A stretch of 63,179 nt of DNA, filler included. It is 11 parts of 11 records of this genome, joined end to end, with 100 filler letters (N's around TTAATTAATTAA, not from the genome) between each part and the next. Parts side by side here need not be neighbours in the genome. Positions count along the whole stretch, not along the records: positions 1 to 12,246 come from SRR7504441_791; positions 12,347 to 15,379 come from SRR7504441_793; positions 15,480 to 22,605 come from SRR7504441_794; positions 22,706 to 29,535 come from SRR7504441_796; positions 29,636 to 34,450 come from SRR7504441_797; positions 34,551 to 37,605 come from SRR7504441_803; positions 37,706 to 41,837 come from SRR7504441_804; positions 41,938 to 45,808 come from SRR7504441_808; 3 more parts are not named here. One strand, 5' to 3'. Every line of letters begins with the position of its first letter. Positions within the stretch are counted from its first letter, which is position 1. Both the position numbers and the translations under genes were made by a program. Under the pieces are notes generated by a model. That model had not been told where the DNA came from and did not search any database. It was given only the letters and a program-made list of their open reading frames with translations. Below are positions 2,109-62,868 of this stretch, piece by piece.

Positions 2109-2125
2109 GCAGTCGGTGCGGTTAG

Positions 2126-2137
2126 TAACGGAACTAT
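2126..2137 (+). promoter_or_regulatory. TAACGGAACTAT, Myb-type element in a 66-nt divergent spacer
   Basis: Exact reverse complement at 33253-33264 in another divergent spacer. Confidence 0.65.
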
Positions 2138-2174
2138 GGCTCCTCGGAGGCTGGGGAGACTCTCGGCCGTAGCC

Positions 2175-4059: not shown

Positions 4060-4309
4060 GAGTCCTGCGTACGTATCGTACGTACTCGTTTAAGATATTA
4101 AATCCTCACTCGAGCTAATGCACCTAAATATATTGTGTAAACGAGTTTAACATAGGATGCAATACAGAACTTGAAATCTTGATTGTGCAACCGGGTTTCC
4201 TAGATCCCACGAGCAACCTACTGTACTAATGTTATATATAGCGCTCGAGCTATTGTAGCCACGTTTCCTAAACCTACTATATTGCATGCATACGGGCGCG
4301 CCCTGGGCC

Positions 4310-4678: not shown

Positions 4679-4784
4679 CGTCACCCGCCGGCTCGCGCTG
4701 GCCCAAGCAGGGCTTTGCGGAGATGGGATCCGTTGGAAACTTCAGCTTCGGGCTGTCGGGTGCAGCTCGCTTCCGTCACCGCTG

Positions 4785-6044
4785 ATGCGGACGGTGATAG
4801 TCGGTGCGGGGATCGGAGGGCTGACCCTGGCCCGCTCGCTGGCCCGGCGGGGGCTGCCGTACCGGCTGCTCGAGGCGGCGCCCGAACTGGACCGTGGCTG
4901 GGACCGCGGCCTGGGGCTCTGGCCGGCCGCCCAGCGTGCGCTCCGGCGGAGCCTCGGCTCTCAGATGCCCGCCAGCGGCCGGATCCCGGCCGCCGCCTAC
5001 CGCAGCCGGTCGGGCCGCTGGCTGTCGGCCGGCTCGTCTGGCGGCGCCCGTCTGGTGCTGACTGTAAGCGAGAGTCGGTGCGTGCGCCGGCTCGGGCGAG
5101 CTGGACGCTGGGGCAGGCTGAGGCAGGCGCTGGCGGACGGGCTGGAGGTGCAGTGGGGCACCCGGGTAGAGCGGCTGGCCGCCGACGGGCTGAGACTTGC
5201 CGACGGCTCGGCCGCTGACGGCGAGCTGCTGGTGCTGGCGGATGGACCTGCCGGGCTGGCTGGCCGGGAGCTGCAGCCGGTCGAGTGGAGCTATGGCGCC
5301 ATGCTCGGACGGCCGTTGGGCGACCGGCCGTTCGAAACGCTCGGGGCGCCCGGCTGCAGGATGGCGGCGGTGCCGCTCGGGCCTGAGGCTTGCTTCTGGT
5401 GTGTCAGGCTCGGGTGGGTGTGACTAGGCTGCAGGTTCGCTTCTGTTCCTGAGAGGCTTTGTGGGCCGAGCGAGCGGTGGCTTCCTCAGCTAGAGGAGTG
5501 CGCGGCCGCGGGTGTGTGGCCGGCTGACTGGGTGTGTGCAGGCTGGTGGGTCACTGGCACGAGCCTGTGCCACGGCTGCTAGCCGGTTGTGAAGGCAAGA
5601 TCCATGAGGTACCAAAAGCCCTCGACCGGGCTGAGCCTCGGGTGGCAGCAACAGACGTTTGTAGGGAGCACCTTGTTTAGTTTGGACCGAGGGAGTCTGG
5701 AGAGTCCGGTGGCCTTGATCGGCGACGCGGCCCACCCATTTGGGCACAATCTTGCACAAGGCGCTGCAATGGCAATAGAAGATGCTGAGGCGTTAGCCAA
5801 TGCGATAGAAGAGTCTGGGCAACCGCATGCGGCGGTGCGACGGTATGCAGAGGCGAGAGAGCGGCGGACGGCGCAGTGCCGGGCGGTGACGCGGTTTGTG
5901 ACCGAGTTGAGTCGATGGCCAATGTTGAGCTCGGCGATGCAGTTCGTACCGTCACCGCTCAACTCGTGGGTCTTTGACAAGGCTCTCGAGTACAGTCTGG
6001 CTGAGAGGCTGTCCGGGGCGAATGCCGACTTGGCAACTGCTTGA
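4785..6044 (+). CDS. FAD-dependent monooxygenase (FAD_binding_3 type)
   Basis: MRTVIVGAGIGG, LVLADG, VALIGDAAH...NLAQGAAMAIEDA. Four 36-44 nt GT-AG introns (first 5078-5116). Confidence 0.9.
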
Positions 6045-6241: not shown

Positions 6242-9200
6242 TCAAACTGTGTCAAATTCAGTAGCCAACGACATCGCGTTGCGGAAGATCTCGAGCAGCC
6301 CTGCGGCAGTCAATCGGTCGTATCTTTTCGGGGCATCGTCCCCCCAGATGCAGCACGGCACACGCAGTGAAGATGCACATTGTCTGGCAAACGGCCCCGA
6401 GCTAAAGTTTTCGGGCGGGTCGGACAACTGAATCTCCATCTGTGAGTGCAGCACTGGTGAGCCGGTAATGTACGCCACAAACTTGTTGTACTCGCCGGGG
6501 CCCATCATCTCGGCCATCTCCCAAAACACCTTCTCGAAGTCATCCAACGAGATCCACTCATCCGCCTCACGCCCATCACTCTCCGCCTGCGACAGCACGG
6601 TTGCCTCCGCCGTGGGCAACCGCTTGTCAACCACAGTAATGAACTTTTTCAGGTCCTCTACAGTGGGAGCGACGGATCGTCCCGATAGGAGCATCTGTAA
6701 ATCCTCGGCTGTGAGACCGTGCAGCACCGACTGGGGCACAACTTGGAGCATGCCCTGGCGTATTGCCTCGAGCTCCTCTTTGATCGGCAGCGTCAGCCGC
6801 TTTGCCACCTCCCATCGAATGTACGCATTCAAGTTCTTCATCGTGACCAAGATCTCGTTCCCATCACTGTCGGTCATAATCTGCCCATCCGCGTTCTCAA
6901 ACACAGCGTCCCACGACTCTGGGTCCTCCCCACCGGGTCGCCCCGTTCGAAACAGTTCCGCCTGCAAAGCCCGAGCTCAGCAGCCAGCAATAGTAGGGCT
7001 CGCCTTCTGCAAGAAGCTGCTCAGGCTGCTTGCATACTCCTTATCTGTGTATAGCATGTCTGCCAACGAGACGGGTCGCTGCAATAAAGCCTGCAGCCAT
7101 AGCAGTCGTGAGTGCGGTGCCCTTCTATCGCACGGCGCACCTTGTAGACATGCCTGTAGAAGATGATCGGCACAGGCACGTTGCAGAGCAATCCATAGCC
7201 CAGCAACAATCCCACTTGTCGATACCTCTCCAATCCCTCTGCACAGCCCTTGCACGGCACAGGCTGGAAATGCAGTGTGTGTGCCGGTGGTTTGGGCATG
7301 AAAGCGTGCTGCTCGATCATTTGCTCCACAGTCAAAGCTTTCAGCGCATCCTCCTCAATCCCACTGATTTGGCCAAGCGCTATTCGCTTGCTCAGTAGTT
7401 TGCTGAGCCTATCACTCCCCAGTGCTGTCAATACTGCAGCCAGTTTCGCCGATGGCAGCTCTTCCGCAACAGCAATGCCCCTTCCGAGATCTTTCTCCAT
7501 GATTCCGTAGAGGAGGGCTGCTGAGCTGTCACTGTCCTCCATCTCATCCAACAACACCCCAAGCTTCGAAACATCTGATGAGTCGGACAGCAGGCTCTCT
7601 ATGTCCGCTGCAGCTATGCTCATCGGAGCCTCCCCTTCCGCTGGAGCCGCAGTATCGCTGGCAGCATTTGTTAATATTTTGTCTACTTTCTCTACCAAAC
7701 CCGGATCCGCCTGTCCCAGCCCCCTCAATCAAGCAAGCGCATTTAAAAGAGCAAGCACGGTTGTCGCACCTGCTGCTCGATCTTCTCTTTTGTCGTAAAC
7801 ATTGTCTGTGTTCCCCGAAGCACTGCAGCTGCATCACTGAAGCATGCTAGAAGCAGTGCTGACCCCTCTCCTGTCTCACCTGTGAATTTGACCACAAGAT
7901 CGTTGACTGCCATAAGCGTGAGCCTCCCTGATGTATCGAAGCGACTGTGCTCTGCTGCAGCTCCTTCGTGTGCTACAAGCGCATCGAGCAGCTGGAGCAG
8001 CACTGACTTTATTCCATCGCGCCCGGCCTTCTTCCGGTTGACTTCGATCTTGAGCTTGCCCCGATGCACAGCATCCATCCGGATCTGTGACATGGCCTTA
8101 CGCACGGTGTGCTCCTTCAGCTCGAATGACTTGAGCAGTATCAAGATAGATGATGGCCCAAGCAGCTTTGCGACTGTCGTAAACTTGTCGACAAAGTGCG
8201 CGACGACATTGCCCCACTTGTTCATCACCTGGGAACACATTATTGAGCTTTATGTAACCTTCAGGATCCCACCTGAACTAGCGTTGGCTGCTCTGGTGAA
8301 TTCTTGGACGAGCTTAGTCGCATCAGCCGCGCTGACACTGCAGCGCCCTTGGTCAGCACGCACAATGGGCAGCACACCTTTGTTGATTGCTTCTCGGCGA
8401 ATGAACTCTGCAGTGGTGTCGCCCTCGATTGGCCGCAAGAGCGAAGGGGTAGCAACGAGCCTGTATGGCCCAAGCTGGTCGCATGGGATGGGAGATTCCT
8501 CCAAGTTCAGCCGCTGGTGCAGCATTCCTTTCCACTTGACCACAGCATCCAGCATAATCGCTATGTAGCCATGCTCCAGCTGGCCAGGTGGCGCGAACCG
8601 CTGCAGCTGGGCCTCTGAGGCATCTGAAGGGCTGCACCGCATCAGCGACAGCAGCGAGTTGTTGCAGTTTGGAGTGGTGGTGCCCACAGGCTGTTCCATC
8701 CGGATCATCATTTCCTCCATCACAGATGTGACCCACTGGTCACTCTCTGCCAGCTCATTCGAGACTTTCTGGAGCGCTGGCCTCTCAGCCAGCTCGACCA
8801 ATTCTACAATCAACTCCACTAGAAGATGGTACGACATCACCAGCCCTGTCGCTGGCTGCTTTGCCAGCACCTCGAGGGGAAGCTCAGACGCAGCATCTTG
8901 TGGTTGAGGATCAGGCACCACCTCAGAGGGTAGCTGAGCCTGTTGCCGCTCCTTTTCGGCTTGCTCCTCCTCTTCTTTCTTTTTGGCTGCCTTGCGCTCC
9001 TCCTGAGCGACCCAAGCTATGAACTTTTCTTTCTGAGTCCACTCTTTCAGAAGCTTGCTCGACTCATCACGCTGACACATCTCCGACATTTTTTGCAGCT
9101 CGTCGACTTTCTTCTGGATTTCCTGATCAGGCATCCCGCTTCGCCTGCCCATATCCCACAGCTGCCCCATCACACGGTCCTCAAACTCTCTATGCCATGA

Positions 9201-12200
9201 ATAGGGCCGGCGAGATGCTCGCGCTGGAGTTTTCGACACTACATCGGTCACCTTGAACCGATTCCCAGTGGAAACTAGCCCGGATGTGGAATCCCGGAAC
9301 TGGTTGGTGCTCTCAGGGGTGCTGGAGCAGGTGGGCAGCTTGTTAAACAGCCTACTCACAACCCTTGACGACGTCGTGCCCAGGCCAGACTCCATCTGAG
9401 GCAGTGGGAACCCGAGGAACAGAGGCCTGACAATCGCTGCCGCCACCACAGCCGCGCTGCAGAGCGCCAGCGAGGCATGTGTGCTGAAGAATGCCAAAAA
9501 TTTGCCCTTGAGCTCGATATCCTGCAGGCACAGGCGATTAGACCGGCTTACTAACTGTGACGCACCTCAGGACTGAGACTCTCCTGCGTGCTTTGCAGAG
9601 TGGCAAACGAAAAGACAGCTGTGTAGACCCGAACAGCTGCATCCATCCAGATGCACGTGCCGTGATTGACGAGCCCACTCCGCAGAGTTGCAGTGAATGC
9701 TGTATCGGCTGTGGGACCGGCAACCAAGGCTAGCATCAGGCCTTCGACAGCTTCGACACCTCCATGTAACTGCACAATTGCCTTTGACATGCTTGCGATG
9801 ATCGCTTTGTCTCCAGCAAACTGTAGTGCAATCTTAGATATTGGTGATGGGGATTCGACGTCGTCAGGCGACTTTTTCTGCTGCTGCAGATACTCAATTA
9901 GCACAAGGCGCCGGTTGGAACCGACACAGCACATGAGCTCTGGAGCTGACCGCACAGCTGTCACAAATGCTTCTATCTCATCGGGCTTAATCTTTCCCTC
10001 GACCTTCGTCTTGTTTGTGAGCAACACCCCCAGTGGCGTGCGGCCAGAAACATCTGTTGCAGTCAGACTGGCAGCTCGCTGATCGGACTCTGGGGCTGCA
10101 TGGGCGAGCACCCATTCAAGCATGGTTGTCCCGAGTAGCAGGTGGTTGCATTCCATAGCCAGGAAGAACGGAGTCCTACCCCAGCGATCCTGCACTATCA
10201 GCATCTGGAATACATTCTCTTCTGAGTTGTCAGAGGCTATCTGGGCAAGCAGCGACTCGTCATTCCGAGCAACTGCCATATGCGCCGAGTTCCAGCCGCA
10301 CCACAGGGGCGCTGTCTCACCAGTTAGGCTTCTAACCAGTGACGGCTTTGCATCTTTGCTGGCGGCCACTGGAGATATGCACACCACGCCACATGCCATC
10401 GGCTCCTGCATGATGGCTTTGGGCTTAGCTTCAGCAGTCTCCTGAGATTGTGGGGGTGGAGGTGCCACAATTGCACCCCCAAGCAGCGCATCCATCCGCT
10501 CGCGCTCATATGAGTTCATTTCGCTAAAGCCATTCTCCACAGCCATCTCGAGTTCGCCCATCATTTCACTAGCTGCCTCGCCCTGCTCGTCAAAGCCGTC
10601 GTCCTGCATTTGATTGAGCTCGCGCACTTTGGCAGCAAACGTGTGCTCAGCCTCAGTGAAGGCATTGCCCGATGGAGCCTTTTGCTCTGCTGGCAGCCCA
10701 GCGAGGGCTCCAAAGCTGCATGAGGACAGTGGTGGCAGTGGGACACCCCACAGAGCCATGCCGTGAGCAGGGAGAATGTCTAGTCTTAGTATCGAACTGC
10801 CAAGGTAAGCACAATGCTTGACCTGTGGGCAGTCTCGGTCTGAGAGCAGCCAGTGGTCTTTTGCGCTCCATTTCAGCGACGTGAGGTCGCAGCTCCATTC
10901 AGTAAGCACGTTGCGGCCCGGCGCCGCCTCAGCATCGGGTGCCAGCTTTGGCCCGCTGGCCTCCTCAGTCTCCACCAGTGACAAACTAAGCTCCCAGCCA
11001 GCAATTGACATGCCCGACACCTCCAAGTTGTTCAGAGTGCCTCGAGTCTTGGCTACAGCATCAAGCAGGCACAGTCCGTTGTTCTGGACAAGAGTCTCAT
11101 CCGTGCCCCCCAGCAGCGCCAGCTCACTCAGAGCCCGCAGCTGGATTGATTCGAGCACGTCGACGGTCTCGGATCTACCAGTTGCTGCCTCCTCTGCTGC
11201 AGGCTCAGCTGCAGGCTCAGCTGCAGCTTCTTTGCCCGGCGCTGCATATACATCATCCAGTGACCCCCCTCTGAACATTTGATTACGCAGAACATCCATG
11301 CTGTTGGCCTCTGCCTCCGCTTCAGCCTCTGCCTCCGCTTCAGCTTCTGCCTCTGCCTTTGCCTCTGACTCAGCAGCAAAGTCCGACTCAGTTCGGAACA
11401 AGTCTGCAATTGCTTCACCATCGCCAATCGGTGGCTTTTCGGGAGGCGGCAATAGCTCCACCTGCCGCACACAACTGAGCCTGAGTCAGAGCAGGCCACT
11501 TGTCACCTTGGGTGCTGGCTCAACTGCAGCCTTGCAGCCACCACAGCCCCAGCCCTCTGTCGGTGGCAAATCAGCAGCGCTCTTCACACGGTAGAAGTCC
11601 TTATTGCCGCTCTGGAGGTCGTTGACATCCGCAAAGTACCAGTATTTATTCCCCCTCAGATTGTATCGCAGCAGCAGGTAGTCATCCTTAATGTAGCTGG
11701 CTGCACCGTCGTTGAGGCCGTGATACACATATTCGCCATTTGCAGCCTCAATCCCAGCGCCTGACCCACCCATCATCATCATCACCCGCCACAGCGCGCC
11801 ACACCTGACACAATGTATTTGCGCTGCTCCTGTTCCTGCGGCTCTGATGCCTGCTTCTTTGATACTTTCCTCACGTATTCGACCAGGTCTGCCTCGTTTG
11901 GGCTGGTAGACCAGCGCATCCAGCACTCAAGCTTGCCCTGCCACTCGAGCAGCCTGATCCACTGCCCATCGGCCGACTGCTCGCCAGTCGTGTATACCAT
12001 CTGACCTACACCCCGCCTTAAGTTGGCCAACGCCAGCTCGAGGCACCGTGCTGCGCCGTGCCGCACTTATCTGCACTCAGGTTTGGCGATACTCGGACAT
12101 TCACCCCATGGTTGTACACAACCTGCCACTCCTCTACCTGCTCGCCCTCCTCCGCCGCTCCGCCACTCCCCGTCTGTTCCTTGACCAGCTCCGGTGGCGT

Positions 12201-12246
12201 GCCCGACCATTGGACCAGCGCCGTGCTCTGATTTGCACCTCCAAGC
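6242..12246 (-). CDS. UBR5: Large HECT E3 ubiquitin ligase, UBR5/EDD-like, with SH3b-like and ankyrin-like segments (5' truncated by contig end)
   Basis: VKFTGETGEGS, YRQVGLLLGYGLL...IIFYRHVYK, LEAIRQGMLQVVP...LTAEDLQMLLSG, FVAYITGSP, catalytic PFARQC. Several 40-45 nt introns link ORFs 9551..11470, 8250..9497, 7743..8240, 7021..7728 and 6242..6967. Confidence 0.8.
11308..11370 (-). repeat. Low-complexity (EA)n coding repeat
   Basis: Translates as EAKAEAEAEAEAEAEAEAEA within the HECT gene. Confidence 0.8.
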
Positions 12247-12346
12247 NNNNNNNNNNNNNNNNNNNNNNNNNNNNNNNNNNNNNNNNNNNNTTAATTAATT
12301 AANNNNNNNNNNNNNNNNNNNNNNNNNNNNNNNNNNNNNNNNNNNN
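12247..12346. other. Artificial contig linker (N44-TTAATTAATTAA-N44); same linker at 15380-15479, 22606-22705, 29536-29635, 34451-34550, 37606-37705, 41838-41937, 45809-45908, 55178-55277, 58829-58928
   Basis: Ten identical 100-nt spacers with stops in all six frames; genes are cut at their edges. Confidence 0.98.
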
Positions 12347-15379: not shown

Positions 15380-15676
15380 NNNNNNNNNNNNNNNNNNNNN
15401 NNNNNNNNNNNNNNNNNNNNNNNTTAATTAATTAANNNNNNNNNNNNNNNNNNNNNNNNNNNNNNNNNNNNNNNNNNNNGAGCAGCTCGATTTCAGCCAA
15501 TTTGGCCTTCCTGTTCAGCATCCCTCCGGTGCAGAGCTTACCGTCGTTAGAGCCCGGCCGGTGCCTCGGGCTCGGCACGGGGAGGCAGGAGAGCACCGGC
15601 AAGAGGGAGAAATTAAAAGAAAAGAAAATATTGCCGTTGGGCGAGACTCAGCTTCTTGCCAGCGAGCTTCGTCGGT

Positions 15677-16468
15677 ATGGCACTACGGAGACTGGGCATG
15701 GCCGGGGCCGCCGTGGCCGCGGGGGCGGTCTCGATCAAGGAAGTGATGTGCAACGCGGATCACATTGTGCCGCCGGACTACCCGTTCAACCACAAGGGCT
15801 TCCTGGGCGGGTTTGATGCTTCCTCGATCCGGCGGGGCTACCAGGTGTACACAAACGTGTGCGCCACCTGCCACTCGATGAATCTAATGGCCTACCGGAA
15901 CCTGGTGGACGTGTGCTACACCGAGGATGAAGTCAAAGAGTTCTGCGATGAAGTGGAAGTGATGGACGGCCCGAACGACGAGGGCGAGATGTTCGAACGC
16001 CCGGCCAAGCTGTCCGACCACTGGGTCCCCCCCTACAAGAGCGAGGAGGAGGCGCGGTACGCGAACAACGGGGCGTACCCGCCCGATCTGTCCCTGATGG
16101 CCAAGGCCCGCATGGACAAGGAAGACTACATCTTTGCGCTGCTCTTGGGCTACAGAGAGCCTCCGGCGGGCGTGTCTGTCAACCCAGGGATGCACTACAA
16201 CCCTTACTTCCCTGGCGGTCAGATCGCCATGCCCCGGCAGCTGATGGATGGGATGCTGGACTACGACGACGGCACCCCAGCCACAGCCTCTCAGATGGCC
16301 AAGGACGTCTCAGTTTTCCTGGCGTGGGCGGCTGAGCCCACACAAGACGAGAGGAAGCTGATGGGTCTCAAGTGGACCGCCTGCTTTATCGTGGCGGCCG
16401 GGCTCACCGGGTACTACAAGCGCTTCCGTTGGGGCCCGCTCAAGTCTCGCCGGATCTCATATGTTTGA
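15677..16468 (+). CDS. CYC1: Mitochondrial cytochrome c1
   Basis: Short presequence; RRGYQVY..VCATCHSM heme motif; ARYANNGAYPPDLSL; YNPYFPGGQIAMP; C-terminal TM. Intronless. Confidence 0.98.
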   Translation: MALRRLGMAGAAVAAGAVSIKEVMCNADHIVPPDYPFNHKGFLGGFDASSIRRGYQVYTNVCATCHSMNLMAYRNLVDVCYTEDEVKEFCDEVEVMDGPNDEGEMFERPAKLSDHWVPPYKSEEEARYANNGAYPPDLSLMAKARMDKEDYIFALLLGYREPPAGVSVNPGMHYNPYFPGGQIAMPRQLMDGMLDYDDGTPATASQMAKDVSVFLAWAAEPTQDERKLMGLKWTACFIVAAGLTGYYKRFRWGPLKSRRISYV

Positions 16469-16671
16469 GAGTCGGAGGGGGTTAGCGAGTTAAGGCGCTG
16501 ATCTCCCTAAGCGTGACGCGCCCTCAGTGTGGCTCTCTAACCGCGGATGATCATCCGGAACAATAAATTATGACAAGGTTTAATATTATGCACATGTTGA
16601 TCTCTATTGCGTTCATACTGAATCAACTGTTACATGATTGTACGGTGCGAGCTAGCTAGTTGTAATCTGGG

Positions 16672-18264: not shown

Positions 18265-18332
18265 CCGGCCCTGGCGCTGGCGGAGCGCAAGTCCGTTACG
18301 CCTGCCCAGCTGACTTCCGCTGGCCGGGCACT

Positions 18333-18982
18333 ATGGCAATCGACGAGGCCGACGTACTCCAGGCGGCGTTCGACGGCGACAGCGAGCGGCTGATGAGCTA
18401 TATTGTGGAGGCAGACGCGAGCGAGAGGCTGGGCTACATGGCAACCTGCAAGGATCGGCTGACGCCCCTGCACGTGGCCGCCACGGCCGGGCATCCGCTG
18501 TGCGTCGCGCTGCTTCTCGAAGTCGCCCAAAAGCATGGCGCCAAGGCCGGATACGCGGACGTCCGGAGTGAGGTGCGGGGGCTGCAGGCCGGTGGCTCAG
18601 TAGGCGGGTCAGGACGGGGAGACTCCGCTGTACTTTGCGACCAGCAGCCTGCGTGCGGATTGCGTCCAGGTGCTGCTGGACGCCAAGGCCGACCCGCACG
18701 CCAAAGACGATGTGACGCTTCGCCTCGCCCCGCTACTAGCACCCCCCCTTCCCCTCCCTTCGCGTCCTGCTTCCGCCGACAGTAGCTCAGTATTGTGGGC
18801 GGCAGTACGGAGAATCTGCCTACAAACTAGCCTCGGCGGCCGCGGCCGGACAGCCAGCACCCATCGAATGCGACGACGACGTAGACAAAGTGGCCGAGTC
18901 CCAACGGATCCTTCAGATGATGCGCGCTGCCACGGGTGAGGCGCCTGACCTCCGGGACTCATTAGAGCCCTATAGTCCTTAA
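18333..18982 (+). CDS. Ankyrin-repeat protein
   Basis: LTPLHVAATAGHPLCVALLL, DGETPLYFA, DYGESAYKLA after removing a 40-nt and a ~94-nt GT-AG intron. 3' end uncertain. Confidence 0.75.
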
Positions 18983-19176
18983 CACGCATAGTCCTGCAAC
19001 ACCGCGGCGTGATAGTTTCGGCGGTATTTCGACGTTTTACAATTTTGCCATTTACATGTCCCGCAAACAGCGCTAGTACAATTTATACGTGAGTGAACTG
19101 CGATTCCTTCATGCACGTCAATTCTATTCATAAAAATTGTTCCGTGAGGCAACTGTTGTGGCAATGGCCCGCCGCT

Positions 19177-19922: not shown

Positions 19923-20019
19923 GACTGATGATATAATACGTTTTCAACGGCATTTTTTTTTACCCAGAAATGAAGACGATGAGGACGCATCGGTGAGCAT
20001 CGCGGCACTCGTTTGAGAG

Positions 20020-30988: not shown

Positions 30989-31082
30989 GGTCTGATGGGT
31001 ACTTGGTACAATCCCGAGCGCGACCGTTGTCGTCAGCAAGTCAGTTGTTGGTGGCCTCACTGCAGCTGCAGTGCAGCCCACC

Positions 31083-43053: not shown

Positions 43054-43095
43054 CAGTGATGTCTCTTCTGTCCGTTGGGACCCCTGCTGCAGGTA

Positions 43096-45808: not shown

Positions 45809-45908
45809 NNNNNNNNNNNNNNNNNNNNNNNNNNNNNNNNNNNNNNNNNNNNTTAATTAATTAANNNNNNNNNNNNNNNNNNNNNNNNNNNNNNNNNNNN
45901 NNNNNNNN

Positions 45909-48900
45909 GCAAATGAAGTGACGATTGAGTCATCTGATAGTTTGCTAGTTGCTAGCGATAATGTTAAGGTCGCTACCACATGGAATGGCACGATCGCATT
46001 GGATCCGAAGGGCGGGTCTGTACAAATTGGTGGCTTGGCGCTTCAAGATACATCGATTCACTCAAAGGACGTACTTAAAGGGCTCGTACTCGACTCGTCC
46101 ATTGTACTGCGGTCACCTGAAGAGGTCGTGGTCCAAAGCTCTTTCACTGTGGACAGTCGGAAGCCTGTTTCTATTCAAGCTCCGTCAGTGGAGCTTGCGA
46201 GCACAGGCCTAAATGATGACCTGGTGCTCGCCACACGGGGAGGCGAGATTCAACTAGGAGATGAGCTCAAAGTGGACGCTGCGGGTCTGCTTAGCTCATC
46301 CAAGCTCAAGGGACTCGACCTGCGTTCTGCAGGGGACATCTCCTTCACTGCTGCCAGAGAGATTCGAATGACAGCACAGCAGATGGATTTGCGCTATCAA
46401 GATCATGTTGAGATCAAAGCAGATTCAATGCGGCTGGCGACAGCAGGACAAGATATAGAGCTTCAACCTTCAGGAGGAAGCGCTGTGATCGATTCAGTTT
46501 TTCTCTCTGGGGCTGAGATTCGTGGCAATGACCAACTGAAAGGTCTCCGGATAGCGAGCGATGCAATGCGCATTGGAAACCCTGACAGTACTCTACAAAT
46601 CATGGGCAAGACTCTTGATCTTCAAGGCACCAAAACTGTAGATCTTGATGCCGGGGAGCAGCTTACTCTCAAGGCACCTGCTGTTTTCGTCTCTGACTCT
46701 CTAACCATTGCTGATGTTGAATTATCTGGCAATTCTTTAACTTCGGGATCATCAAGTGCAGGGCTCACTCTTGACTCCAACAGTGGGATCTGGATCAGAC
46801 CTGGAGAGCAACATCCGGTGGTGGTGGATGGTGGACTCGAAGTCAGAACGTCTGAGCGCATCGCTCTATCAGGGGATGTCAGCCTGGATGGCAACGTAAG
46901 AATGAAAGGTGAGGTGGTGACGGACGCCTTAAGACTTGTCGGCAATCGATTCTCTGGACAGGAAGCGGTCAAGCCATTGGAACTTGCCTCTGTCACTCCA
47001 ATAACAATTGGGAGCAAGGAAGCTGTACAGCTAGCTGGTGATAGTATTGACATTGCAGCCAAGTCGGACATGGTACTGAGTGCTGACGAGCTGAGGTTGC
47101 ACTCCAACAACGACATTATTCTTCAAGATAAGGGCGGGTCTGTGCTGATCGACGGCATTAGCTTGGATGGGAGGGCCATGATGGGAACAGACCCTACAAA
47201 GAATCTTCATGTATTGGCCGACAAAGGGTTGCACATGCAAGCTGACGAAGTGCTTCACGCGCATGCACCTGAGCTTAATTTGGAGGCACAAGACGTGCTC
47301 AATCTGCGAGCACGTCGGATTCAAGCATCCACAAGCACATGGGGCTCAGTGCAGATCGACTCTCCCGGCGGAGGATTGCAGGTAGGGCAAAGTCTCGTAC
47401 TGCAGGACACTGAGTTACAATCTACCGACTCTCTTGGTGGATTAACATTGAACAGCCGGAATGAGCTCGTGTTAAATTCTCCGAAGGTTGTTGTAGATGG
47501 CTCGCTCGAGGTACAGGGTGCCGTGAGTTTACAAGGCAGGTCGATCTCCTTAACTGCAACCGAAGGAAGTGACCTTTTATTGCAAACTGTGGGTGGAGAA
47601 ATCCAGGCTGGCAGTGGAGTGGTCTTTGATGGACCTACAATGCTTCTATCAGATACTTTCAGAGGTAGGCTGGTTGCTGATGGGGCCATGCGCATGTCAG
47701 CTAGCGAGGTGGACCTCCAGGCTGGAAGGACTGTAGTGGCAAAGGCCCGCGACTCTGTTGAGATTGGAGGAGAGTTGATTCAGATTCAGACCGGCTGGCA
47801 GGGTCTGGTGCAGCTCAATGGGAGGGGAGGAGAACTTGTTGCTGGTGGCATATCGTTCTCGGACCAGATTTCGAGTACAGATGTTGTCAAGGGACTGGGG
47901 GTCCGAGCAGATAATCTCCTCCTGCAGGGTCGAAGCATCGATTTGCAGTCAGATGACATGCACCTTGAGGCCAGGTCTCAGCTGAGCCTGGTTGCATCTA
48001 CCATTTCAATGGCGTCCACAAAGCTCAATCAGCCAATTAGGATGGAGCAGACTGTTGTTACAGATCAGTTATCATTAGATGGGAACACTGTTGCTTCACT
48101 TGATCCTGTGTCGGGCCTGAAGTTCGCATCAGATAAAGATCTGACATTCCATTCTCCTCGAGTTGTGATGAACGGGCAACTGCAGGTCTACTCTGAGTCT
48201 GACGTGGAGTTTTCGGCTCACAGCCTGCTACTCAATGCGGAGACAACACATCTCAACACTAATGGCGGAGACGTAATTGCCTCTGGTCTGAGGTTTGATG
48301 GAACTTCGATTGTATCATCCAATGAACTGAAGCCTCTCCGGCTCTTTTCTCCTACAAGCATGCTCCTCGAGGCTGAGCAGAAGGTGTCACTCATGTCCCA
48401 TGATATAGACTTCTCGTCAGATAAGCTCAGCCTTTCGGCCAGCTCTCATTTAGAGCTCTCAACCGCCTGGGGGAGCGAGGGTGTTTCGTTCAACACCCCA
48501 GGTGGACATGTTCAAGTAGATTCACTCCAACTCGGCGCTGCAAACTTGCGCACATCTGACCTTGTATCTGGGCTGGCAATTCGAAGCCGCCGAGGACTGC
48601 AGGTAAGTGCAGCAACAGCACTCACTCTGGGTGCAGAAACGCTCGATCTGACTGCACTGGAGTCGTTGAATATATCAGGCTCCAGCGTGGACTTAAGTTC
48701 TGCATGGAATAGCAAGGTGCAGATCACAAGAGGTGGGCTTGCTGTTGGCCATCAATTGGTCTTTGAGGACACCTCTGTGACTTCTCATGACCATGTTAAA
48801 CCCTTGCAGCTTACCAGCGCATCTGATATCAATCTCAAAGCCAAGGGTGCTCTGCAATTGAATGGACTTGTAGTGGAATCTCGTGTTCATCCTGTCGAAA

Positions 48901-51900
48901 TTCATGGTGCAGGAATTGATCTTCAGACTGCAGCATGGGGCTCGGGAATTCAGATGACAACGAAGGGCGGGCAAGTGAGGATGGGGGATATTGTCGTTGA
49001 CCATGGGGCCATCGAAAGTGCAAATGCTATGAACCCGCTGCTCCTCAGGTCATCAGTTGGGGTCACTATTGGGGATGACAGAACTGACACACGGATCGAT
49101 GCAAGGTCGCTCTCATTGTACTCGTCTGGGCAGACTGAGATCAGCTCAGAAGCAATACGGATTGCAGCCCAAGGAAATTCTGGAATCGAGTTGGATGCAA
49201 CTGTTGTCAGGGTGGCAGATACTGAAATAAGTGGAGCTTCCCTCACTATGGCGGACAAAGCAAAATCAGCTATACTTCGCTCTGAATCATCGATTAGTGT
49301 TAAACCAAGCCATTCTTTGCTCCTTAGCAGCGCTGACTTGACACTCCTGTCACGTCAGCACACAACCATTAGTTCATCCGAGGCCTTGTCAATGACAACA
49401 GGATGGAATGGGCAGGTAGCAGCCCTAGTCCGTGGCGGTGATCTGCAGAGCCAAGATGTGAGGATCTCAGGCAGCACACTGATGTCTTCGAGCATGAAGG
49501 GCCTGCTGCTAGATGCCCCTGCTGGCATCACGCTGTCGAGCCCAGTGCGCATTAACAACAATCTTGAAGTAGAGACCGACGAAATTTCGATGCATGCTGG
49601 CAAGATGTCATTCGAAGCAGATGACCTTTCGTTCTCCACACGTGGTGGTGAAATCCGGGCAAATGGCCTTATCTTGGACGGTACACAGATTTCGTCTTCT
49701 GATCTCCTCAAGCCTGTTGAGATGGCCTCGACCCATGCACTGTCGCTGGCTAGTCCTGAATTGACGGTGACAACTGGCACTTTTGATGTCAGGGCTCAGG
49801 ATCGAATATCAATCAAGGCAAAATCTGTCGAGCTAGAGAGTGGTTGGAATCGGCCAATCGAATTCAGCAATGAACTTCAAGTCCAGTCACTGGAACTTAC
49901 TGGCCAACGGCTACAGAGCACTGACGAGATTCGAGGCTTGTCCCTGCACAGCAAAAGCTTAGTCTTCAGTGGGAGCAAGCAAAGACTCCAGGCGGAGAAA
50001 ATCGAGGCCAGTGCAAGTCGAATGGACCTGAAGGCAGACGTTCTGGATGTTACTGCAGATCAAATCAAACTTGATGCTGTGGGAAGCGAGACCCAGATAG
50101 GCGCATTGCGCCTGGGTGGGGTGGCAGTGGAAACAGAATCGCACCTGACTAAGCCGCTGCTGCTTAGTTCAGACGCTGGTGTCGTGCTCAAAACAGGCTC
50201 TGGCAAGCATGTGTCAATCCATGGCTCGGTGCATGCAACAGGCCCTAGCACCCTCATCGAGGGCGACCAAGTCAACCTGCGAGCTACAGGATGGGGCGAG
50301 GCTGTGAAGCTTGAAGGAAGAGTTGCCATTGGAAGTGCTCTAACAATCAATGGGCCAAGCGTGCATGCCACTGATCATGTGAAACCGTTATCTGTGAGAG
50401 GCGACCTTCTTGAGCTGCAAGCTAAAGACGAGCTTCGTGTTGAGGCTGATATCATTTCTGTGAACGCTGCCAAGGATGTTTCAATATCTGGCGACACTGT
50501 GCTATTACAGAGCAGTCTCAACAAGAATGTAGAGATCAAGCCTACTGGGGGAGCTCTTCTGGTGGATTCCCTGGTACTAGATGGTCACACGCTCCAGACT
50601 TACAACAGCCCTAAAGGCATGCTAATGAGGTCTAACGACATTGGAATCGAAGCAGCAGGCTCCGTAGAGCTTCGCAGTGCAACTGAGCTCCAGGTCCGGA
50701 GTAAATCAGTCATATTCGACGCTGCATCAATCCAGATGGAGACCGAATGGGGGACCTCTGGTATTGTGGTCGACAAGAGCTTAAAGGTGGGCGAGAGTCT
50801 CGAGATTGCTGGCAACACAATCAACTCAGGTGATATCCTTGCTGGCCTCCACATGAGGAGCAATGATGAAATAAAACTTCAATCTCACAAAGGAGTTCGG
50901 ATTGACGGTGCACTTTCTACGAGTGGCAACGCTCCTGTATCACTCTCAGGATCTTCTGTGCACCTTTCTGGGCCTGTGCGAGTCGAACCCCGTGGAGGCG
51001 ACTTTCAGGTCGAATCTCTCGAGATTGATGGCGCTCAAGTCCGGTGGTCGGATAAAGTGAAGCCTTCTACGTTGAGCGCATCAAAGAACCTCGAACTTAG
51101 GGCTGCAGACGAGATGAACATTAGTTCTGAACATGTTACCATCCATGCACAATCCAAGCTCGAGTTGTCCTCACAGGAGCTACGGATGGCAACCTCTGGC
51201 TGGAATCGTGACATCAATCTCCAAACGTCCGGTGGAGCAATTGTCGCGGGCGGACTGGTTCTTGATGGCTCCAGTGTCAATCCTACTGGTGATCACTCGC
51301 CATTGCTTCTCAGGCATAGCCGCGGCATCATCGCTCGGGCTGATACACTGGAAGTTGACAGCCACGATGTTCTCATCTCAGCGGCCAATATGATCGAAGT
51401 AGCAGCCCAGCGAGTCGAGCTGCAGAGTCAAGATGTAAGAATACGGACTTCGCCACTGACTGTAGGCTCGCTCAACTTAGATGGCTCAGGCGTAAATTCT
51501 GATGATGCTCTTGGAAACCTCCTACTTGATTCTCGTCGTGATCTTGTTCTGCAATCTGGTTCCGGGCACGGTGTTCAAATTTTCGGTGCTTTCGAGGCGG
51601 ATTCGCCCCAGGTTAGTCTGACAGGGGATAAGATCAACCTTAGTGTCTCTGGTTTGAATGAGAATCTTCAGCTTGGGCTTCGTGGAGGTGATTTGATGGT
51701 CGATTCTGCTCGCTTTTCGGCAGCTGGATTCGAAAGCCTTGAACGCGTCAAGCCACTTTCCATTCGTGCTGCACATTCCCTTGAGCTCAAAAGCAAAAGT
51801 GTGGGGCTTGATGCTAGTGAGTTGATGCTTTCAGGCGACAGGATTGATTTGCGTTCACCCACACTCGCAGTTTCAACTGGATATGGTGGAGAATTAAGCT

Positions 51901-54900
51901 TTGGGGCTGCTGGGAACCCTGTCCAAGTGTCTGGAATCAATATCGAGGGCAGCGAGCTCCGGCCCGTCCACCTCCACAGTCATCTCAATCTGCGTGCGCA
52001 ATCGCTGGGAATCGCAGCTGAAGACGAGCTGCGTCTAGCATCGAGCTCTGTCGAGATTTCAGCAAGGGACTCCGTGCAGGTGATGGCTTCCCAGACAGTG
52101 CTCCTCGCCAACCAAAAGCTGAACCAGCCTATCAGACTAGATACAGCAGGAGGAGATGTCCAAGTGGATGACACGCGTCTGAATGGAAATTCCCTTTCAA
52201 GCACCAGCATTGCAGGGCTGACAATCCAGTCTGATGAGCAGTTGTTGCTGAAAGCAGGAACAAAGCACAGCGCTTACATTTCTGCACGGGCTGTCGAGCT
52301 CAAAGGAGAAGATGTGCTTGTTGACTCAAGGGCTATTACAATGAGAGCAGAAACAATAGAACTCGATCCCCAGGGCATGGGTGGCTCTGTTTTGCTTGGT
52401 GAGAGCATGGCAATCACGGGACCGCGGCTTAGCCATCAGTCAGAAACCAAGGCACTGCTGCTTCAGGCAGCTGGTGGAATGGCCATTCAAGCCAAAAGCA
52501 TTCACACTACCGCTGCCGTGTATGAAGTCGAAGCAAAGCAGTTGGAGCTCAAGGCGTCAAAAATTGAGATGGAAACTGGATGGAACCAAGCCGTGACCCT
52601 GAATGGCGAGGTTAGGGTTGGCCAACTTGCTATGGAAGGCTCGTCTCTTTCCTCACAGAGTGCCACAGGACTTAACTTTCATTCTGATCGAGAATTGCGT
52701 CTGCGCTCAGACCAGGTGCTGGCCTTGACCAGCACAGATGCGGTGCAGGTTGTGTCTGAGGGTTCTGCAACCCTGAAGAGCGAGCAATCCATATCACTGC
52801 AGACGGCATGGGGTGGGACCACCAGGGTCAGCAGTGGGCTTCTTGTGACTGATGCACTGGAGCTCAGTGATACCCACTTGACTAGTAGTGACGCTGTGCA
52901 AGGACTTGGCATTGAATCTGCCGGCGATCTTACGCTGAGGGCTGGGGATGGTCAGGAAGTGCGGCTCATAGGGAGCACAGTCGAAGTTGAATCGGCAAAG
53001 CCTTTCAGTTTAACAGCAAATACGATAGAGCTCGAGACAAATGGGCTGAACGGTGACATTCGGCTTGCGCCTCGTGGTGGGGATGTCTTGGCAGCCGGTT
53101 TGCAGCTTGCACCCACTGAGATCCAGACTCAGGATCCCGTCAAGGGCTTGGTCCATCGCCACTCTCACCTGAGATATATTGCTGAGGATGGCCAGATTGA
53201 GTTATCCGCACCAGAGACGATTATCAAGGCTACTGAAGCATTCATACAAGCAAATCAGATTCAACTTCAGTCTGGTTGGGACAGGGATATACAGTTAGAT
53301 GCTACTGAGGTTGCCGTAGGGGAATCTGGCATGGTACTTGGCGGCACAAAACTGTATACCGAAGGAGAAGGGGGCAAGCCTCTTCTACTTCGCTCATCAA
53401 AGGCTATCATCGGACGTGCTGACCATGTGGGCTTGCAAGCACAAGATATTACGATGTCAGGCACTGAAGCTGTGAACATTGCAGGCAGTCGTGTTGGAAT
53501 CGAGACTAGTTATGGGGGAGATGTTCGCGTGTCTCATGGGCCTCTTAGAGTTGGTGGTCTTGCGCTCGCTGATTCGAGCCTGAAGTCAGAGCACAGTCTT
53601 GTACTGCAGTCCAGACAAGATATTTCACTTGCCTCACAGGTGGGTACTACCCGAATTCAGGCCGGGGAATTTGTGGTCTCAACGGCAGAGAGGCTGCACA
53701 TGGATGCATCAAAAGTAGAGTTAAATGCAGACGAGACTGTAGTGACTGGAGCTCTGCGAATGAATTCAATTGAGATGGATGGATCCAGAATCAGTCATGT
53801 TGGACAAGTGCTTAAGCCATTGAGGATCGCATCCACCTCTGCAGTGGACATCCAAGGCTCAGAGACTCTCAGCCTGCGGGGAGAGTCGCTCACAATGCAG
53901 CATGAGCGTCTCAGTTTCGATGCACAGCACATCTCGATTGGCAGCACGAAGTGGGATGCTTCAGATCTCTCACTGAAAGGCCGCACTGTCTTTGCAGATG
54001 CCATAGCAATTGATGGCCCGACTCTGGACAGCTTGGAAACGGTACACCCGCTGCAGCTGCGAGCAAAGACGCTAGGGCTGGTGGCCTCTGATCGATTGGA
54101 CATGCAGGCAGGCAACGAAATCGATATTTCTGCGGCAAAACTGGAGCTGCACAGCAAGCAGGGCATCAGGCTCTCCACAGGCTGGAACGCGGAGGTAACC
54201 ACAGACGCCGGTCTTGCAATTGGAGACCATGGTCTGAGGTTCAGTGGTGCAACAATCGGAACTTCCAGCCTCAATGTGAAAGACTTGGTCCTTGAGTCTG
54301 AAAAGGACCTAACGCTCAAGCCACAAGGAGCCGTCCTGGTGCATGGTGGACTAGTAGTGGACTCAGAGTCTCCCTTCAAAGTTGCCAGTCCATCCATCGA
54401 GCTCGAGGCTGCCCCAATGGGACAAGGCGTGAGCATCCAGTCCCATGGAGGAGCTGTGCGAATTGCAAAGGTCCAACTCAAGGGCACACGTATCAGCTCT
54501 CTAGATGCAGTCAAAGGTCAGGCTATCGGTAAGAACAGTTCTCCAATTCAAATGCGTGGCAGTGCCATAGGGCTGTCTACTGAAGGATCCATGGATTTGA
54601 CATCTAAAGCGGCAATAGACCTGAAAGCACAATCGATTCTGCTGGATACCGGGCCATGGGGTGGAGTAACAGTTGGGAGGCGCGGATCGGTTCAAGTGGC
54701 AGGCATTGATTTTGATGGTCAGAGCATCAGGCCTGCTGAATCAGCTAATGCATTAACATTGCGCTCTGAAAACGCTGTGGCACTCAAAGCCCACAGCCTC
54801 GAGGCGCAGGCAACCGACATTGATCTCACAGCTACAGGCAGTGTTGAAATTTCAGCGGCTACACTGCAGCTCAAGACCGCGCATGACAGGCTAGTAGACA

Positions 54901-55177
54901 TTACAAATGGCCTGCGAATTGGACACAGCGGGCTGCAGATTGATGGATCCTCTGTGGAAGGAGTGTCGCCTGTGAGCCCCTTGAAACTCAGTTCAGGGCA
55001 TCAGTTGGACCTGAAAGCCAGTGGCTTGCTTCATATGAGATCAGATGCCCTGACACTTGCTGCTGATCAAGGTGTCAAACTGGTTGCTCCATCGATTGGT
55101 TTCGCAACGGGCCTGAATGGAGATGTAAGAGTTGAGGCAAGAGGTGGTGCGTTTGCCATTGGTGATGAAATGAAGTT
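45909..55177 (+). CDS. Giant beta-strand repeat protein (>3089 aa, both ends missing)
   Basis: One uninterrupted frame across the whole contig; ~75-80 aa unit TGWNxxIxL...GGxV...LxLDGxxIxSxDxLK(G/P)LxLxS. Confidence 0.9.
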
Positions 55178-55607
55178 NNNNNNNNNNNNNNNNNNNNNNN
55201 NNNNNNNNNNNNNNNNNNNNNTTAATTAATTAANNNNNNNNNNNNNNNNNNNNNNNNNNNNNNNNNNNNNNNNNNNNTTATCCAGATAATTATAATTATT
55301 CGTTTATGTGGTTGTGTTTCTCACTGGACTTTGCAATCTCCCAAGTTCAAACGATCGAATTAATTTGGTTCCAAATATATATGTATTACTATTGTAATAC
55401 AATTGAAGTTCGAGTACTACAATCGAAGTACGAGTACTAACTACTTGGAATAGTAATTAGTAACTTGATTGTCCCAATCATCAACACAATAATGAAAACT
55501 TCCGCACTTAGACAGAATCTCCAAGGATTTGGTCTATTGTATAACGTAACGTTGATCAGCATGACTAACTCAGCCGCCAAAGAACACAGATCAGAATCTG
55601 GATTGGC

Positions 55608-58828: not shown

Positions 58829-58928
58829 NNNNNNNNNNNNNNNNNNNNNNNNNNNNNNNNNNNNNNNNNNNNTTAATTAATTAANNNNNNNNNNNNNNNN
58901 NNNNNNNNNNNNNNNNNNNNNNNNNNNN

Positions 58929-61900
58929 CACTCGGCCGGCCATTCTCAGCCACAGATCCGCCGTTTGAAACACCTCGAATCACGTAAAAGTTTTGCTGCT
59001 CCCACATAGGGCCGCGGTCAAGATCCGAAGAGAAGCCCTGCGTCGTCTCGGTTAAGCTGTTTCATCCAGTGTTAATTAAGCAGCACCTGAGTGTCTGTGG
59101 ACACAGTCGGGAGAGGCACGGCTGTCCAGAACTCTTTTGTCTGAAGCATTCTGACCATGCCAGCCACTCGATCAGGCTTCATCCCGCGAGCCATCAGAGG
59201 ATAAAACCTGTCGACCGCTCTCAGGCCACGATTTTTCGGTTACCCGGCGACTGTCTTGATGCTCATCAGGGAGCCGTTGAAGAACCGATCGTAGTAGAAT
59301 TCAGTGGCGGAGTCCCACATCAAAGCGTCGAGCGCTTCGGTCGTATTAGTCGCTACTGCGGTCCAGAAAGCGACTCGCTCAGTGAGCTTCAACTGCACAG
59401 CCATCGAGGCAAGCGCCTGCCCCCGGCCGCTCTCAGGCCACAGATTCTGGGGCTCGGCAGTTCACAGCCACAATCGGGTGCAGTTGGTGTCACCTGGGCT
59501 TCGTAGATGATGTACGAAGTGAAGTCAACAGACCAGTGGTCACTGGCACAACACGACGAATACTCCGATGAACAGAACGTCTGCTCATGATCCATTCCGG
59601 CCTCACAGGCTTGACTCCAGTACAGCAAGAGCCCCTCCAGCCCCACGCCCTTGCGCCTGTTGGCCAGATGCCACTGGATGTACGCTTCCAGCTTTGGGAA
59701 CAGCTGCGCCAGCGTCTGAGTGTCGTTGGTCTGCCCAAACCAATCGAGTGCCACCAGCGCCATGTTCGGCGGCATCGCGTCGGTGAAGCTAAGGCACCCG
59801 CTTGGCGAGAACTCTGCACAAGCCTGTCCGGTGCTGTTGTCTTGAAACTGGAGGAAAGATCTGAAGTAGTCTAGAGACAGCGACGGCGAGACTCGATTCA
59901 TCGCCACGGTCTGCACCACACAGTTAGTACAGTCCCATGGTGAACAACTTCCCCATGTTTAAGGTGTCAAGCTGAATAACAGTAGCTTCCTTTAAAAGGG
60001 CATGATACCTGCATCATGCCATCCCATAGATACATGTTCTGATGCGGCGCCCTGCACGTTGTGCTCCAAGCCTGATTCACACGACCCTCCGCAGACAGGC
60101 TGTTCACTTTCATCACACTCAGCAGCTTCCTTTGGAACTCATCATCGCCGCGGTTGGCTAAAGCAGGCAAGCTCCCAATGAACCGATTCCTCGCTGCAAG
60201 CACCTGTCACCGCCAAAACATCAACACAGCACTCAATGTATAGCACCGCAGCTGGGTCCAATGAAGCTTCACACCCAGAATGGGCCTTCCCAGCCGCATT
60301 GTAGCACAGAGCGAAGCTGACCAGGCCTGTTGACCGTTACAACCAAAGCCAACAGTCAACGCAAGACCTGAGCCGAGATCTTTACTAGCAAACGTGAGTG
60401 TGTCGGTCGGAGTTGTCGAGACGTTGACGAGCCGGCCTCCGGTGCAGCCTCCGTTATCTCCAGTGGCTGTGAGGGCAACTCCTTGCTTCGTGGTCACAGT
60501 AAATGCTTTGGGCGCCTCGGCTTGTTGGTAGATTACGTACATGAAACCATCAACAGTCGCCTCCTCCAGCAGATCCAAAGTCAGTTTCCATGGGGCTCCG
60601 GCTGGCGTATCCGCATTCCAGAAGCTATCGCAATCAGGCTTCACCACGTTGCTAATTGGTCCGTTCGGATGCGACAGGCCTGAAGCGCGCCACGAGGTGG
60701 AGGTGCGCCACTGGCCGCCAATTCGGAGCGACACGTAGCAAATGGTCGGCCCATACCTGGCGCTTTCCTCATAAGGCAACTGGCCTAGGCTCACCCATCG
60801 AATGAGTTTTGAATCGTCCAGTTGAGCGTCTTGAGCTTGACCGCTTGACCAAAGTCAAACTGCTTGACCGCCCCGCAGTTTCGCTTCTGCTCCAGCAGCC
60901 CCGCCTGGCCTGCTCACAACAGTCAATTCAACCCGACGACGAATCAAGCTCCATGCCTGATCCTTCCACCCAGCCCACAATGGTGTGTGCATCGGCCCAG
61001 CTGACCGCCAAAACTCCGCCATCTCGGCTCTTCACCACCAGCGCGTCATTTGTCGCTACGACAACCTCATCTGTGCTGCTGGCAGCCGCTTCGGGGCCGA
61101 ACCCTAGGCTGAGGATCCGAGGCGTCGGGAGCCACAAATACACCGAGTACGAACCGTTGACAAACCAACCGACAAATCGAGACGGGGTATCCGATTGGCC
61201 GTCGATGCCAGAGAATCCAAAGAGAGCTCCGCTGGTGCTGCCAAGCCCCGAGCTGGCGTCCTGCCATGACCGTGATCGGCCGCTCTCAGGCCACAGACTG
61301 GGCAGTTACCTGGAAGGTGGATAGTCCCGCAGCCTCACCGCCGTATGTGCGAGGCAAATACTTGGGGTAGCTGCTCAGATCGCACACTGGCGGCGAGTTG
61401 CCGACACCGACTCCGTAAGGCGAAAAGGCCGTGCAATTGGCGTATTGTTTGTTTGCATAGGGTGTGACAACGACGTCGATGAACGAAATGCCCAGAGGCG
61501 ACTCAGGCAGGCCGAGGAAGAATCCAGGTTCTTGTACTGAGCCTCGGACTAGCTTCACTGTGACGTTGCGGACTGTGGGAGTCTGGATAGTCGGGGCTAG
61601 ACCTGAGGCCAACTGTGACATGGCAACGATGATTCGGACCTGAAGACGATTCCATTTGGACCCTAACCACTTGGTCGCAGTCGACGCAGGTCGTGTTGTA
61701 GACCAGAACCTACCAACAGCTGTCAGCCCTCTGCGCTCGGCGCTAAGGGCAATGCATCCATCATGCACTACTCACGTTTTCTATCGTGCCGCCTCGCCCT
61801 CTCTCAGACTTGACAGTGAGCACTCGGGGGCCCCAAGTCCACAGCGCAGGGTTGGTCCGTGCGCCGCCTCGCAGCACGTTGTGGCTCACTTCAACGTCTC

Positions 61901-62784
61901 GCACATCGCCAGACATCTCGGAACCAAACGCCACGCCACCTGGCCGGGCAGATTCGGTTAAATACCGTTAGAATCAGTTAATGTCACCCGAAAAGTTGAA
62001 GACATTGTTTGTGACAACGACCCGTTCAGTGGCTCGGCCATAGGCCCGGCCGCAAGCGTCCATCCCGGACTTGAGCGCCACACCGTCGTCGCCAACCTCA
62101 ATGTGGTTGCCAGCAATGTATACCTGCCCAGCTGCGGTGAGACACTCAACCGCTACCACCACAGTCACATCTTGACTAGAATCCACATCGACGCCGTCGG
62201 TCGTGATCGCGGTGATTCCGTTGACAATCCGGCAGCCGACCACCCGCACCTGCCCGGCCTGTCATGTCCGTTGATTTCCGTTGACCCGCCTGCTGACAGC
62301 TGTACAAGTGCACAGTCCAGTACGCGCTGCCGCCCATCTGCAGGTCCTCGAGACGGATCCGTTGTGAGTAACGGAACTGCACCAGCCGAGGCCCACCGCC
62401 GCCGTTGGCGAAGCCTCCGTCGATGGTCCCCCCACCCGTGATGGTGACGTCTGTGACGTTGAGCCCGCCAATGAAAGGCCGAGAGCAGGAGCCGCGACAG
62501 CCGCAGTAGCTGGGGAGGTCGGGCCAGGCGGGCAGGTCGCGCCGCCCCCCGCCCTGGAGGACAGCCCCGGGCTGGAGCTGGAGCGTGAGGTGGCTGGGCA
62601 GGTCTAGCCAGCGCACAGCGTACAGGCCGGCCGACAACGTCAGCAGCCCCGGCGCACCGGGCACGCCCGCGCACTTGTTTATCGCTGTCTGGACGGCAGC
62701 TGTGGCGTCAGGGCCCGCGATCGGGCCGAGGGTGCAGCCGTCCCGGCCGGCAGCACGAGCAGCTGACAGCACGAGCAGCTGCAT
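58929..62784 (-). CDS. Secreted multidomain glycoside hydrolase: GH28-like + F5/8-C(CBM32)-like + GH63/MGH1-like (3' truncated)
   Basis: ITGGGTIDG, TTDGVDVDSS, GDDGVALKSG, GSEMSG, KSERGRGG; SFWNA...LTLDL; YLWD, EAGMD, MWD....FYYD, RGPMW. Confidence 0.8.
59417..59493 (-). mobile_element. Candidate introner-like intron (family motif TCTGTGGCCTGAGAGCGGCCG)
   Basis: 21-nt identity (59424-59444) with intron 61261-61309 (61277-61297); related copies in three other introns. Confidence 0.45.
61261..61309 (-). mobile_element. Candidate introner-like intron, same family
   Basis: gtaactgcccagTCTGTGGCCTGAGAGCGGCCGatcacggtcatggcag. Confidence 0.45.
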
Positions 62785-62868
62785 CAGGGCGCCCAAAAGG
62801 CTCCATCCCTGTGCTCGCTTTCCGTTAAATCCCGTTGAGCTTTTTTTCTCCTCATCGCAAGCGAGCAA

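Follow-up and report, generated by a model that had tools for sequence, protein, structure and literature searches.

In a window of 63,179 nt, made up of eleven contigs of one assembly bin, the pentamer AACGG is present in all nine of the short spacers that separate divergently transcribed (head-to-head) genes, mostly as YAACGG followed by A or C. Within the window this observation is confirmed and statistically robust, a strong local statistic for an element whose function is putative. We suggest that AACGG is probably the shared promoter signal of these very short gaps, and likely a central, orientation-free promoter element. The complete proposal, that it is a genuine orientation-independent element occupied by a protein, most likely of Myb type, and marking the promoter common to both genes, is one that we favor on the sequence pattern with slightly better than even confidence.

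The AACGG word in head-to-head spacers

The initial annotation had listed nine divergent ATG pairs and the YAACGG sites between them; all nine pairs are present in the sequence, as CAT/ATG, at the coordinates given, and every listed site is real, belonging to the 57 YAACGG matches in the window. When the gene layout was rebuilt independently of that list, from a codon-score table of open reading frames (ORFs), a six-frame strand map and AT-rich dips at gene 3' ends, the same nine minus-to-plus junctions were recovered, each with the geometry of a bidirectional promoter, in which two head-to-head genes share a short common gap. The spacers are 39-162 nt long and total 758 nt, and each holds at least one YAACGG, with ten altogether. 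A possible tenth junction lies 5' of the cytochrome c1 gene, where a short minus-strand frame with its ATG at 15521 runs off the contig.

TAACGG is found on the plus strand at 2126-2131 (spacer 2109-2174, 66 nt) and on the minus strand at 33259-33264 in the shortest spacer (33235-33273, 39 nt), which adjoins a Methyltransf_16 gene; both copies fall within a 12-mer, TAACGGAACTAT, that the two spacers had been reported to share and that indeed matches exactly at 2126 and 33253. A third TAACGG (18293-18298, minus strand) separates a minus-strand 2OG-Fe(II) oxygenase gene from a plus-strand ankyrin gene (spacer 18265-18332, 68 nt). CAACGG occupies the minus strand at 4730-4735 (spacer 4679-4784, 106 nt), where the ATG of the right-hand gene is credible because a Rossmann GxGxxG motif begins at residue 5, and the plus strand at 19945-19950, between a cyclophilin gene (minus) and a gene with an MgtE_N domain (plus; spacer 19923-20019, 97 nt). 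Three further minus-strand CAACGG copies lie at 25569-25574, between an ankyrin-repeat gene (minus) and an LRR gene (plus) in the longest spacer (25464-25625, 162 nt), which also carries a second copy, GAACGG, at 25524-25529; at 31024-31029, between an HMG-box gene (minus) and a gene with a signal-peptide-like start (plus; spacer 30989-31082, 94 nt); and at 43072-43077, 21 nt from the ATG of a minus-strand CBS-domain gene (43053), with an uncertain start on the right-hand side. The last spacer (62785-62868, 84 nt), flanked by two genes with signal-peptide-like starts, contains a minus-strand double copy, TAACGG plus CAACGG, 10 nt apart at 62822-62837. Three of the start codons could lie elsewhere (31084 instead of 30988, 25532 instead of 25463, and about 43275 instead of 43096); among these alternatives, only 31084 would place the motif within a coding region.

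The initial annotation had also claimed enrichment over chance, and this holds: the ten YAACGG copies in 758 nt compare with about 0.6 expected from the background (47 in 61541 nt). For exact AACGG, which occurs 90 times in the window, the spacers hold 11 copies versus 0.97 expected (Poisson, 7.6e-9), a score to which only that of the homopolymer AAAAA is comparable, owing to two T-runs. By chance, about 10% of head-to-head spacers would contain the word. Of all 5-mers, and all 6-mers with a two-fold degeneracy at a single position, an unbiased enumeration found just AACGG/YAACGG in 9/9 spacers, followed by overlapping variants of itself in 8/9. The same enumeration was run on 2000 sets of length-matched random window segments and on 2000 dinucleotide-preserving shuffles of the spacers, so that the choice of motif is corrected for; no word reached 9/9 in any set of either kind, the maximum being 8. 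Outside the spacers the word is close to its background frequency: the window as a whole is mildly enriched in YAACGG (57 versus a shuffle mean of 41.2, with as many or more in 2 of 100 shuffles), and 46 copies are left when those of the spacers and of cytochrome c1 are removed (shuffle standard deviation, 6.4).

In spacers between gene 3' ends, the word is no more frequent than background. A single copy in 1492 nt, located in one of six gaps, was found between tail-to-tail genes, a difference from the head-to-head spacers that is significant by spacer (Fisher, 0.002) and by base (5e-5). These tail-to-tail gaps (4060-4309, 16469-16671, 18983-19176, 23915-24050, 32367-32529 and 38774-39319) are AT-rich, with many TGTA-type words and a GC content of 0.43 versus 0.62 in the head-to-head gaps; given this contrast, a dip in GC is by itself enough to mark a gene 3' end in this genome.

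Within the spacers, sites of either orientation are found, at distances of 13-108 nt from the flanking ATGs. Measured along its spacer, each of the 11 falls within the central half (binomial, 4.9e-4; with each spacer counted once, 9/9, 0.002). Ten of the 11 spacer copies and the copy upstream of cytochrome c1 (see below) match YAACGG, the other spacer copy being GAACGG; in these 12 sites, whose flanking bases were counted by eye, the word is preceded by C or T in 11 and followed by A in six, C in four, and T and G in one each, with A at the next position in seven. Direct double copies whose starts are exactly 10 nt apart occur three times in the window versus 0.069 expected. In passages on R2R3-Myb proteins, homodimer binding of direct repeats is reported (PMC11995187). 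Pairwise alignment of all spacers and two introns revealed no long shared element; the top scores, 29 between the two introns and 28 between spacers 1 and 7, barely differ from the maximum of 28 in 30 shuffles, indicating that the sites are not copies of a longer repeat. A mobile-element origin was considered and ruled against by this lack of long similarity between spacers.

Transcript ends and copies outside the spacers

The initial annotation had placed a YAACGG just upstream of the cytochrome c1 gene, and a minus-strand CAACGG does lie at 15634-15639, 38 nt before an ATG at 15677. Four RNA runs from four studies were compared with the third contig, which carries this gene, as assembled contigs at 95-99% identity. 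In three of these runs, each from a different study, the cytochrome c1 contigs start at 15678-15680, inside that first ATG and 39-46 nt downstream of the motif, which is included in none of them; one of the contigs is directly preceded by adaptor sequence. Because the RNA contigs start within the first ATG, translation probably begins at the second one, at 15698, and the leader would then be about 20 nt long. This second ATG is also where a database protein (P0001) begins that is identical to the cytochrome c1 of the window.

On the same contig, a spliced RNA contig of the cyclophilin gene extends to 19919, where it stops one base before the ATG and 26 nt from the motif. RNA contigs cover both genes at the third spacer (18265-18332) and one gene at the fourth (19923-20019). 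Neither the spacers themselves nor the MgtE_N-domain gene are covered by any RNA contig, an absence to which we attach no weight. In two spacers, short upstream ATG frames (4722-4787 and 19967-19993) intervene between the motif region and the ATG of the main frame; use of the main ATGs would imply that transcription begins downstream of these frames.

The caveat already attached to the motif, that the hexamer occurs elsewhere as well, is borne out by a double copy with 10-nt spacing (19324-19339, plus strand) inside the RNA-verified 43-nt intron of the cyclophilin gene (19305-19347). In the minus-strand gene with its start at 62784, a putative intron at about 62250-62304 holds another such double copy (62268-62283, minus strand); this intron was deduced from a frame change rather than from RNA. 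The two intronic pairs have opposite orientations relative to their host genes and could be internal or antisense promoters. The five RNA-verified introns (256 nt in total) contain two AACGG copies, both in the cyclophilin intron just mentioned, while the other four have none. These introns (18573-18612, 18712-18805, 19305-19347, 19709-19747 and 19822-19861), visible as joints in the RNA contigs, are 39-94 nt long with GT..AG ends and have a GC content of 0.72; they start with GTG and mostly finish with a G-rich run followed by CAG, so that their ends look unusually uniform.

One further copy, GAACGG at 44332-44337 on the plus strand, is situated at an AT-to-GC transition about 97 nt 5' of the ATG (about 44430) of an EF-hand gene, one of two tandem gene starts that could be placed. 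The other, at 35113, has no AACGG within 300 nt.

Source and composition of the window

The window joins 11 separate contigs, each of about 3 to 12 kb, with ten identical artificial linkers (44 N, a 12-letter word with stops in all frames, and 44 N) at 12247-12346, 15380-15479, 22606-22705, 29536-29635, 34451-34550, 37606-37705, 41838-41937, 45809-45908, 55178-55277 and 58829-58928. Adjacency across the linkers is meaningless and ORFs that cross them are artifacts; all nine spacers lie clear of them. Six different contigs carry the motif-bearing junctions, which thus represent independent samples of one assembly bin.

The gene content is eukaryotic and includes cytochrome c1, cyclophilin, HECT, HMG-box, ankyrin, LRR (with a plant-type N-terminal cap), SNF2, EF-hand, ZIP and CBS genes. 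Parts of the sequence are found in RNA runs from six studies, all of them marine poly(A) metatranscriptomes. For cytochrome c1, the nearest relatives are transcript contigs at 81-85% identity, and the best hits from named taxa, green algae and plants together with one haptophyte at 62%, reach at most 66%. Taken together, these matches indicate an uncultured marine eukaryote for which no closely related reference genome exists. A search with cytochrome c1 returned 80 loci, of which a cDNA (L001, 86% identity) and a contig (L002, 84%) are the closest, both without upstream DNA, and the remaining loci are at 67% identity or less; a search with the 2OG oxygenase found no relative.

Several large or atypical coding regions were also observed. 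On the first contig, contiguous minus-strand reading frames with a HECT domain at their end (6242-12245) probably constitute one large multi-exon HECT E3 ligase gene that runs off the contig, and two LRR reading frames are probably one gene; counted in this way, the window offers few tandem gene starts. A single open frame of more than 3000 codons (45909-55175) fills its contig and runs off at least the 5' end. The contig at 12347-15379 encodes a Cys-rich protein with repeats that, by eye, resemble thrombospondin type 1 repeats; its GC content is 0.52, and the codon model, which was built from the remaining contigs, gives it no coding score. A different organism within the bin may be its source.

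Possible roles and known counterparts

The recognition site of Myb proteins is YAACNG/YAACGG, and it is because the word in the window equals this core that a Myb-type binder is proposed. We envision that a sequence-specific DNA-binding protein, most likely one with a Myb-type helix-turn-helix domain, would occupy AACGG and mark the promoter common to both genes. With the motif in the middle of a gap of nucleosome size or smaller, both promoters would assemble there, and the two genes would be transcribed outward from the motif, from starts some tens of bases away on each side; the leaders would be very short. The initial annotation had gone further, proposing a Myb-bound element that serves as a general bidirectional core promoter for functionally unrelated genes. 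The flanking genes are indeed unrelated in function (among them are cytochrome c1, cyclophilin, lysine methyltransferase, LRR, HMG-box, CBS, 2OG oxygenase and ankyrin genes); the tandem start at 35113 weighs against the claim of generality, and both "Myb-bound" and "general core promoter" are overstated as descriptions. A bolder version, to which we assign a low probability, would make YAACGG the universal organizer of ultra-short bidirectional promoters, replacing TATA and initiator elements and giving near-leaderless mRNAs on both sides, with the double form in introns seeding internal promoters.

Several observations weigh against a promoter role or narrow it. The evidence on transcript starts comes from one gene and one cyclophilin contig, and assembled contigs cannot fix a 5' end. 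The related cytochrome c1 cDNA L001 has a leader of at least 43 nt without AACGG, which argues that very short leaders are not general among relatives. In the spacers of 39 and 42 nt, the motif is separated from the ATGs by just 13-27 nt, which rules out one uniform geometry. Double copies also occur in introns, one of them verified and the other putative, and the word is therefore not confined to promoters; with one of the two tandem starts lacking AACGG and the other preceded by GAACGG alone, the element is not demonstrably universal. No Myb gene was found, no search aimed at one having been made. Finally, no orthologous promoter was available among the relatives of cytochrome c1 and the 2OG oxygenase, and the sample is only about 62 kb from 11 unlinked contigs.

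The central and orientation-free placement of the sites would equally suit a protein-bound boundary or nucleosome-excluding site, comparable to those of Reb1 or BEAF-32, that keeps the gap open or insulates the two genes and whose binder need not be of the Myb type. Intronic copies far from gene starts fit such a role, while the copy upstream of cytochrome c1, at a promoter-like distance from the RNA ends, speaks for a promoter; taken together, the data are equally compatible with a boundary or nucleosome-excluding role and with a promoter role, and we regard the former as possible, with a rather small share of our confidence. That the word instead belongs to one regulon, a cell-cycle program or some other condition-specific Myb response to which all nine gene pairs happen to belong, seems unlikely to us. 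One tandem start without the motif would fit a regulon, and the plant MSA element, (T/C)C(T/C)AACGG(T/C)(T/C)A, has AACGG as its core and is described as bound by 3R-Myb (PMC5405339). The window sites share this core and, in 11 of 12 cases, the pyrimidine before it, but none of the 12 fits the long consensus by eye, and their 3' flank is A/C-rich. The MSA element also drives G2/M-specific genes from ordinary upstream regions, whereas the sites here are central in gaps of 39-162 nt, beside genes that are, judging from their identities, housekeeping or otherwise unrelated, and the motif is present at 9/9 junctions on six independent contigs. Identity with the plant MSA element was rejected on the lack of any fit to the long consensus and on the unrelated housekeeping neighbors.

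Double copies in two introns, and the short extended similarities between those introns and between spacers 1 and 7, might instead suggest a signal acting in RNA (in leaders or in splicing), or the relic of a short mobile or introner-like insertion into non-coding DNA. Against this, the copies have both orientations relative to the host gene, the cytochrome c1 copy is in no RNA contig, the word is missing from 4/5 RNA-verified introns, and the alignment scores barely surpass those of shuffled sequence and reveal no long shared element; we consider an explanation of this kind improbable. Chance combined with selection, in that both the motif and the ATG pairs were picked after the sequence had been viewed, deserves mention since the word is short, the start codons at 30988, 25463 and 43096 are arbitrary choices, and the whole window is mildly enriched. 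Yet when motif choice was corrected for, 0/4000 null sets reached 9/9, an independent reconstruction gave back the same junctions, and the alternative ATGs, with one exception, keep the motif within the junction, making this explanation very improbable indeed.

As an analogy, the nearest functional precedent for a promoter role of AACGG is the M3 motif of Trichomonas vaginalis, which a review, describing the work of Smith et al. (2011), presents as a core promoter motif resembling a Myb recognition site and bound by the Myb-like protein M3BP (PMC4693282). The likeness includes a protist whose leaders are very short and in which a Myb-like word lies directly 5' of numerous unrelated genes, and a promoter element that stands in for the usual initiator. 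It differs in that M3 was examined by experiment and its factor identified, while the element here is known from sequence, and in that M3 is described for genes without an initiator (about a quarter of genes) rather than for head-to-head pairs; T. vaginalis is also unrelated to the source of the window. Yeast Reb1 is a Myb-family general regulatory factor at nucleosome-depleted promoter regions. Like the element proposed here, it uses a single short Myb-type site at many unrelated promoters, without regard to orientation, and can serve two divergent genes; unlike it, Reb1 has another site sequence, acts in gaps of several hundred bases, and works through nucleosome exclusion and roadblock rather than start placement. 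In mammals, bidirectional promoters are enriched in sites for GABP, NRF-1 and YY1. In Drosophila, the BEAF-32 insulator is described between close head-to-head genes (PMC3483549). These animal systems resemble the window in that a small set of factor sites is over-represented between head-to-head genes, and differ in having gaps of up to 1 kb and several motifs; in the window, one pentamer is found in every gap seen, and the gaps are shorter by the order of ten-fold. No report of AACGG or YAACGG as a general head-to-head promoter element was found in the literature searched, supplements lying outside the search, and passages of a Micromonas genomics paper and an Auxenochlorella preprint contain no such element.

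If one word does mark nearly every shared promoter, it would provide a simple rule for where transcription starts in gaps of 40-160 bases. Such a rule would cover an extremely compact eukaryotic genome and would help to annotate gene starts in uncultured eukaryotic metagenome bins. Trichomonas would also no longer be the only case of a Myb-like site serving as a basic part of the promoter, the one here being independent of it.

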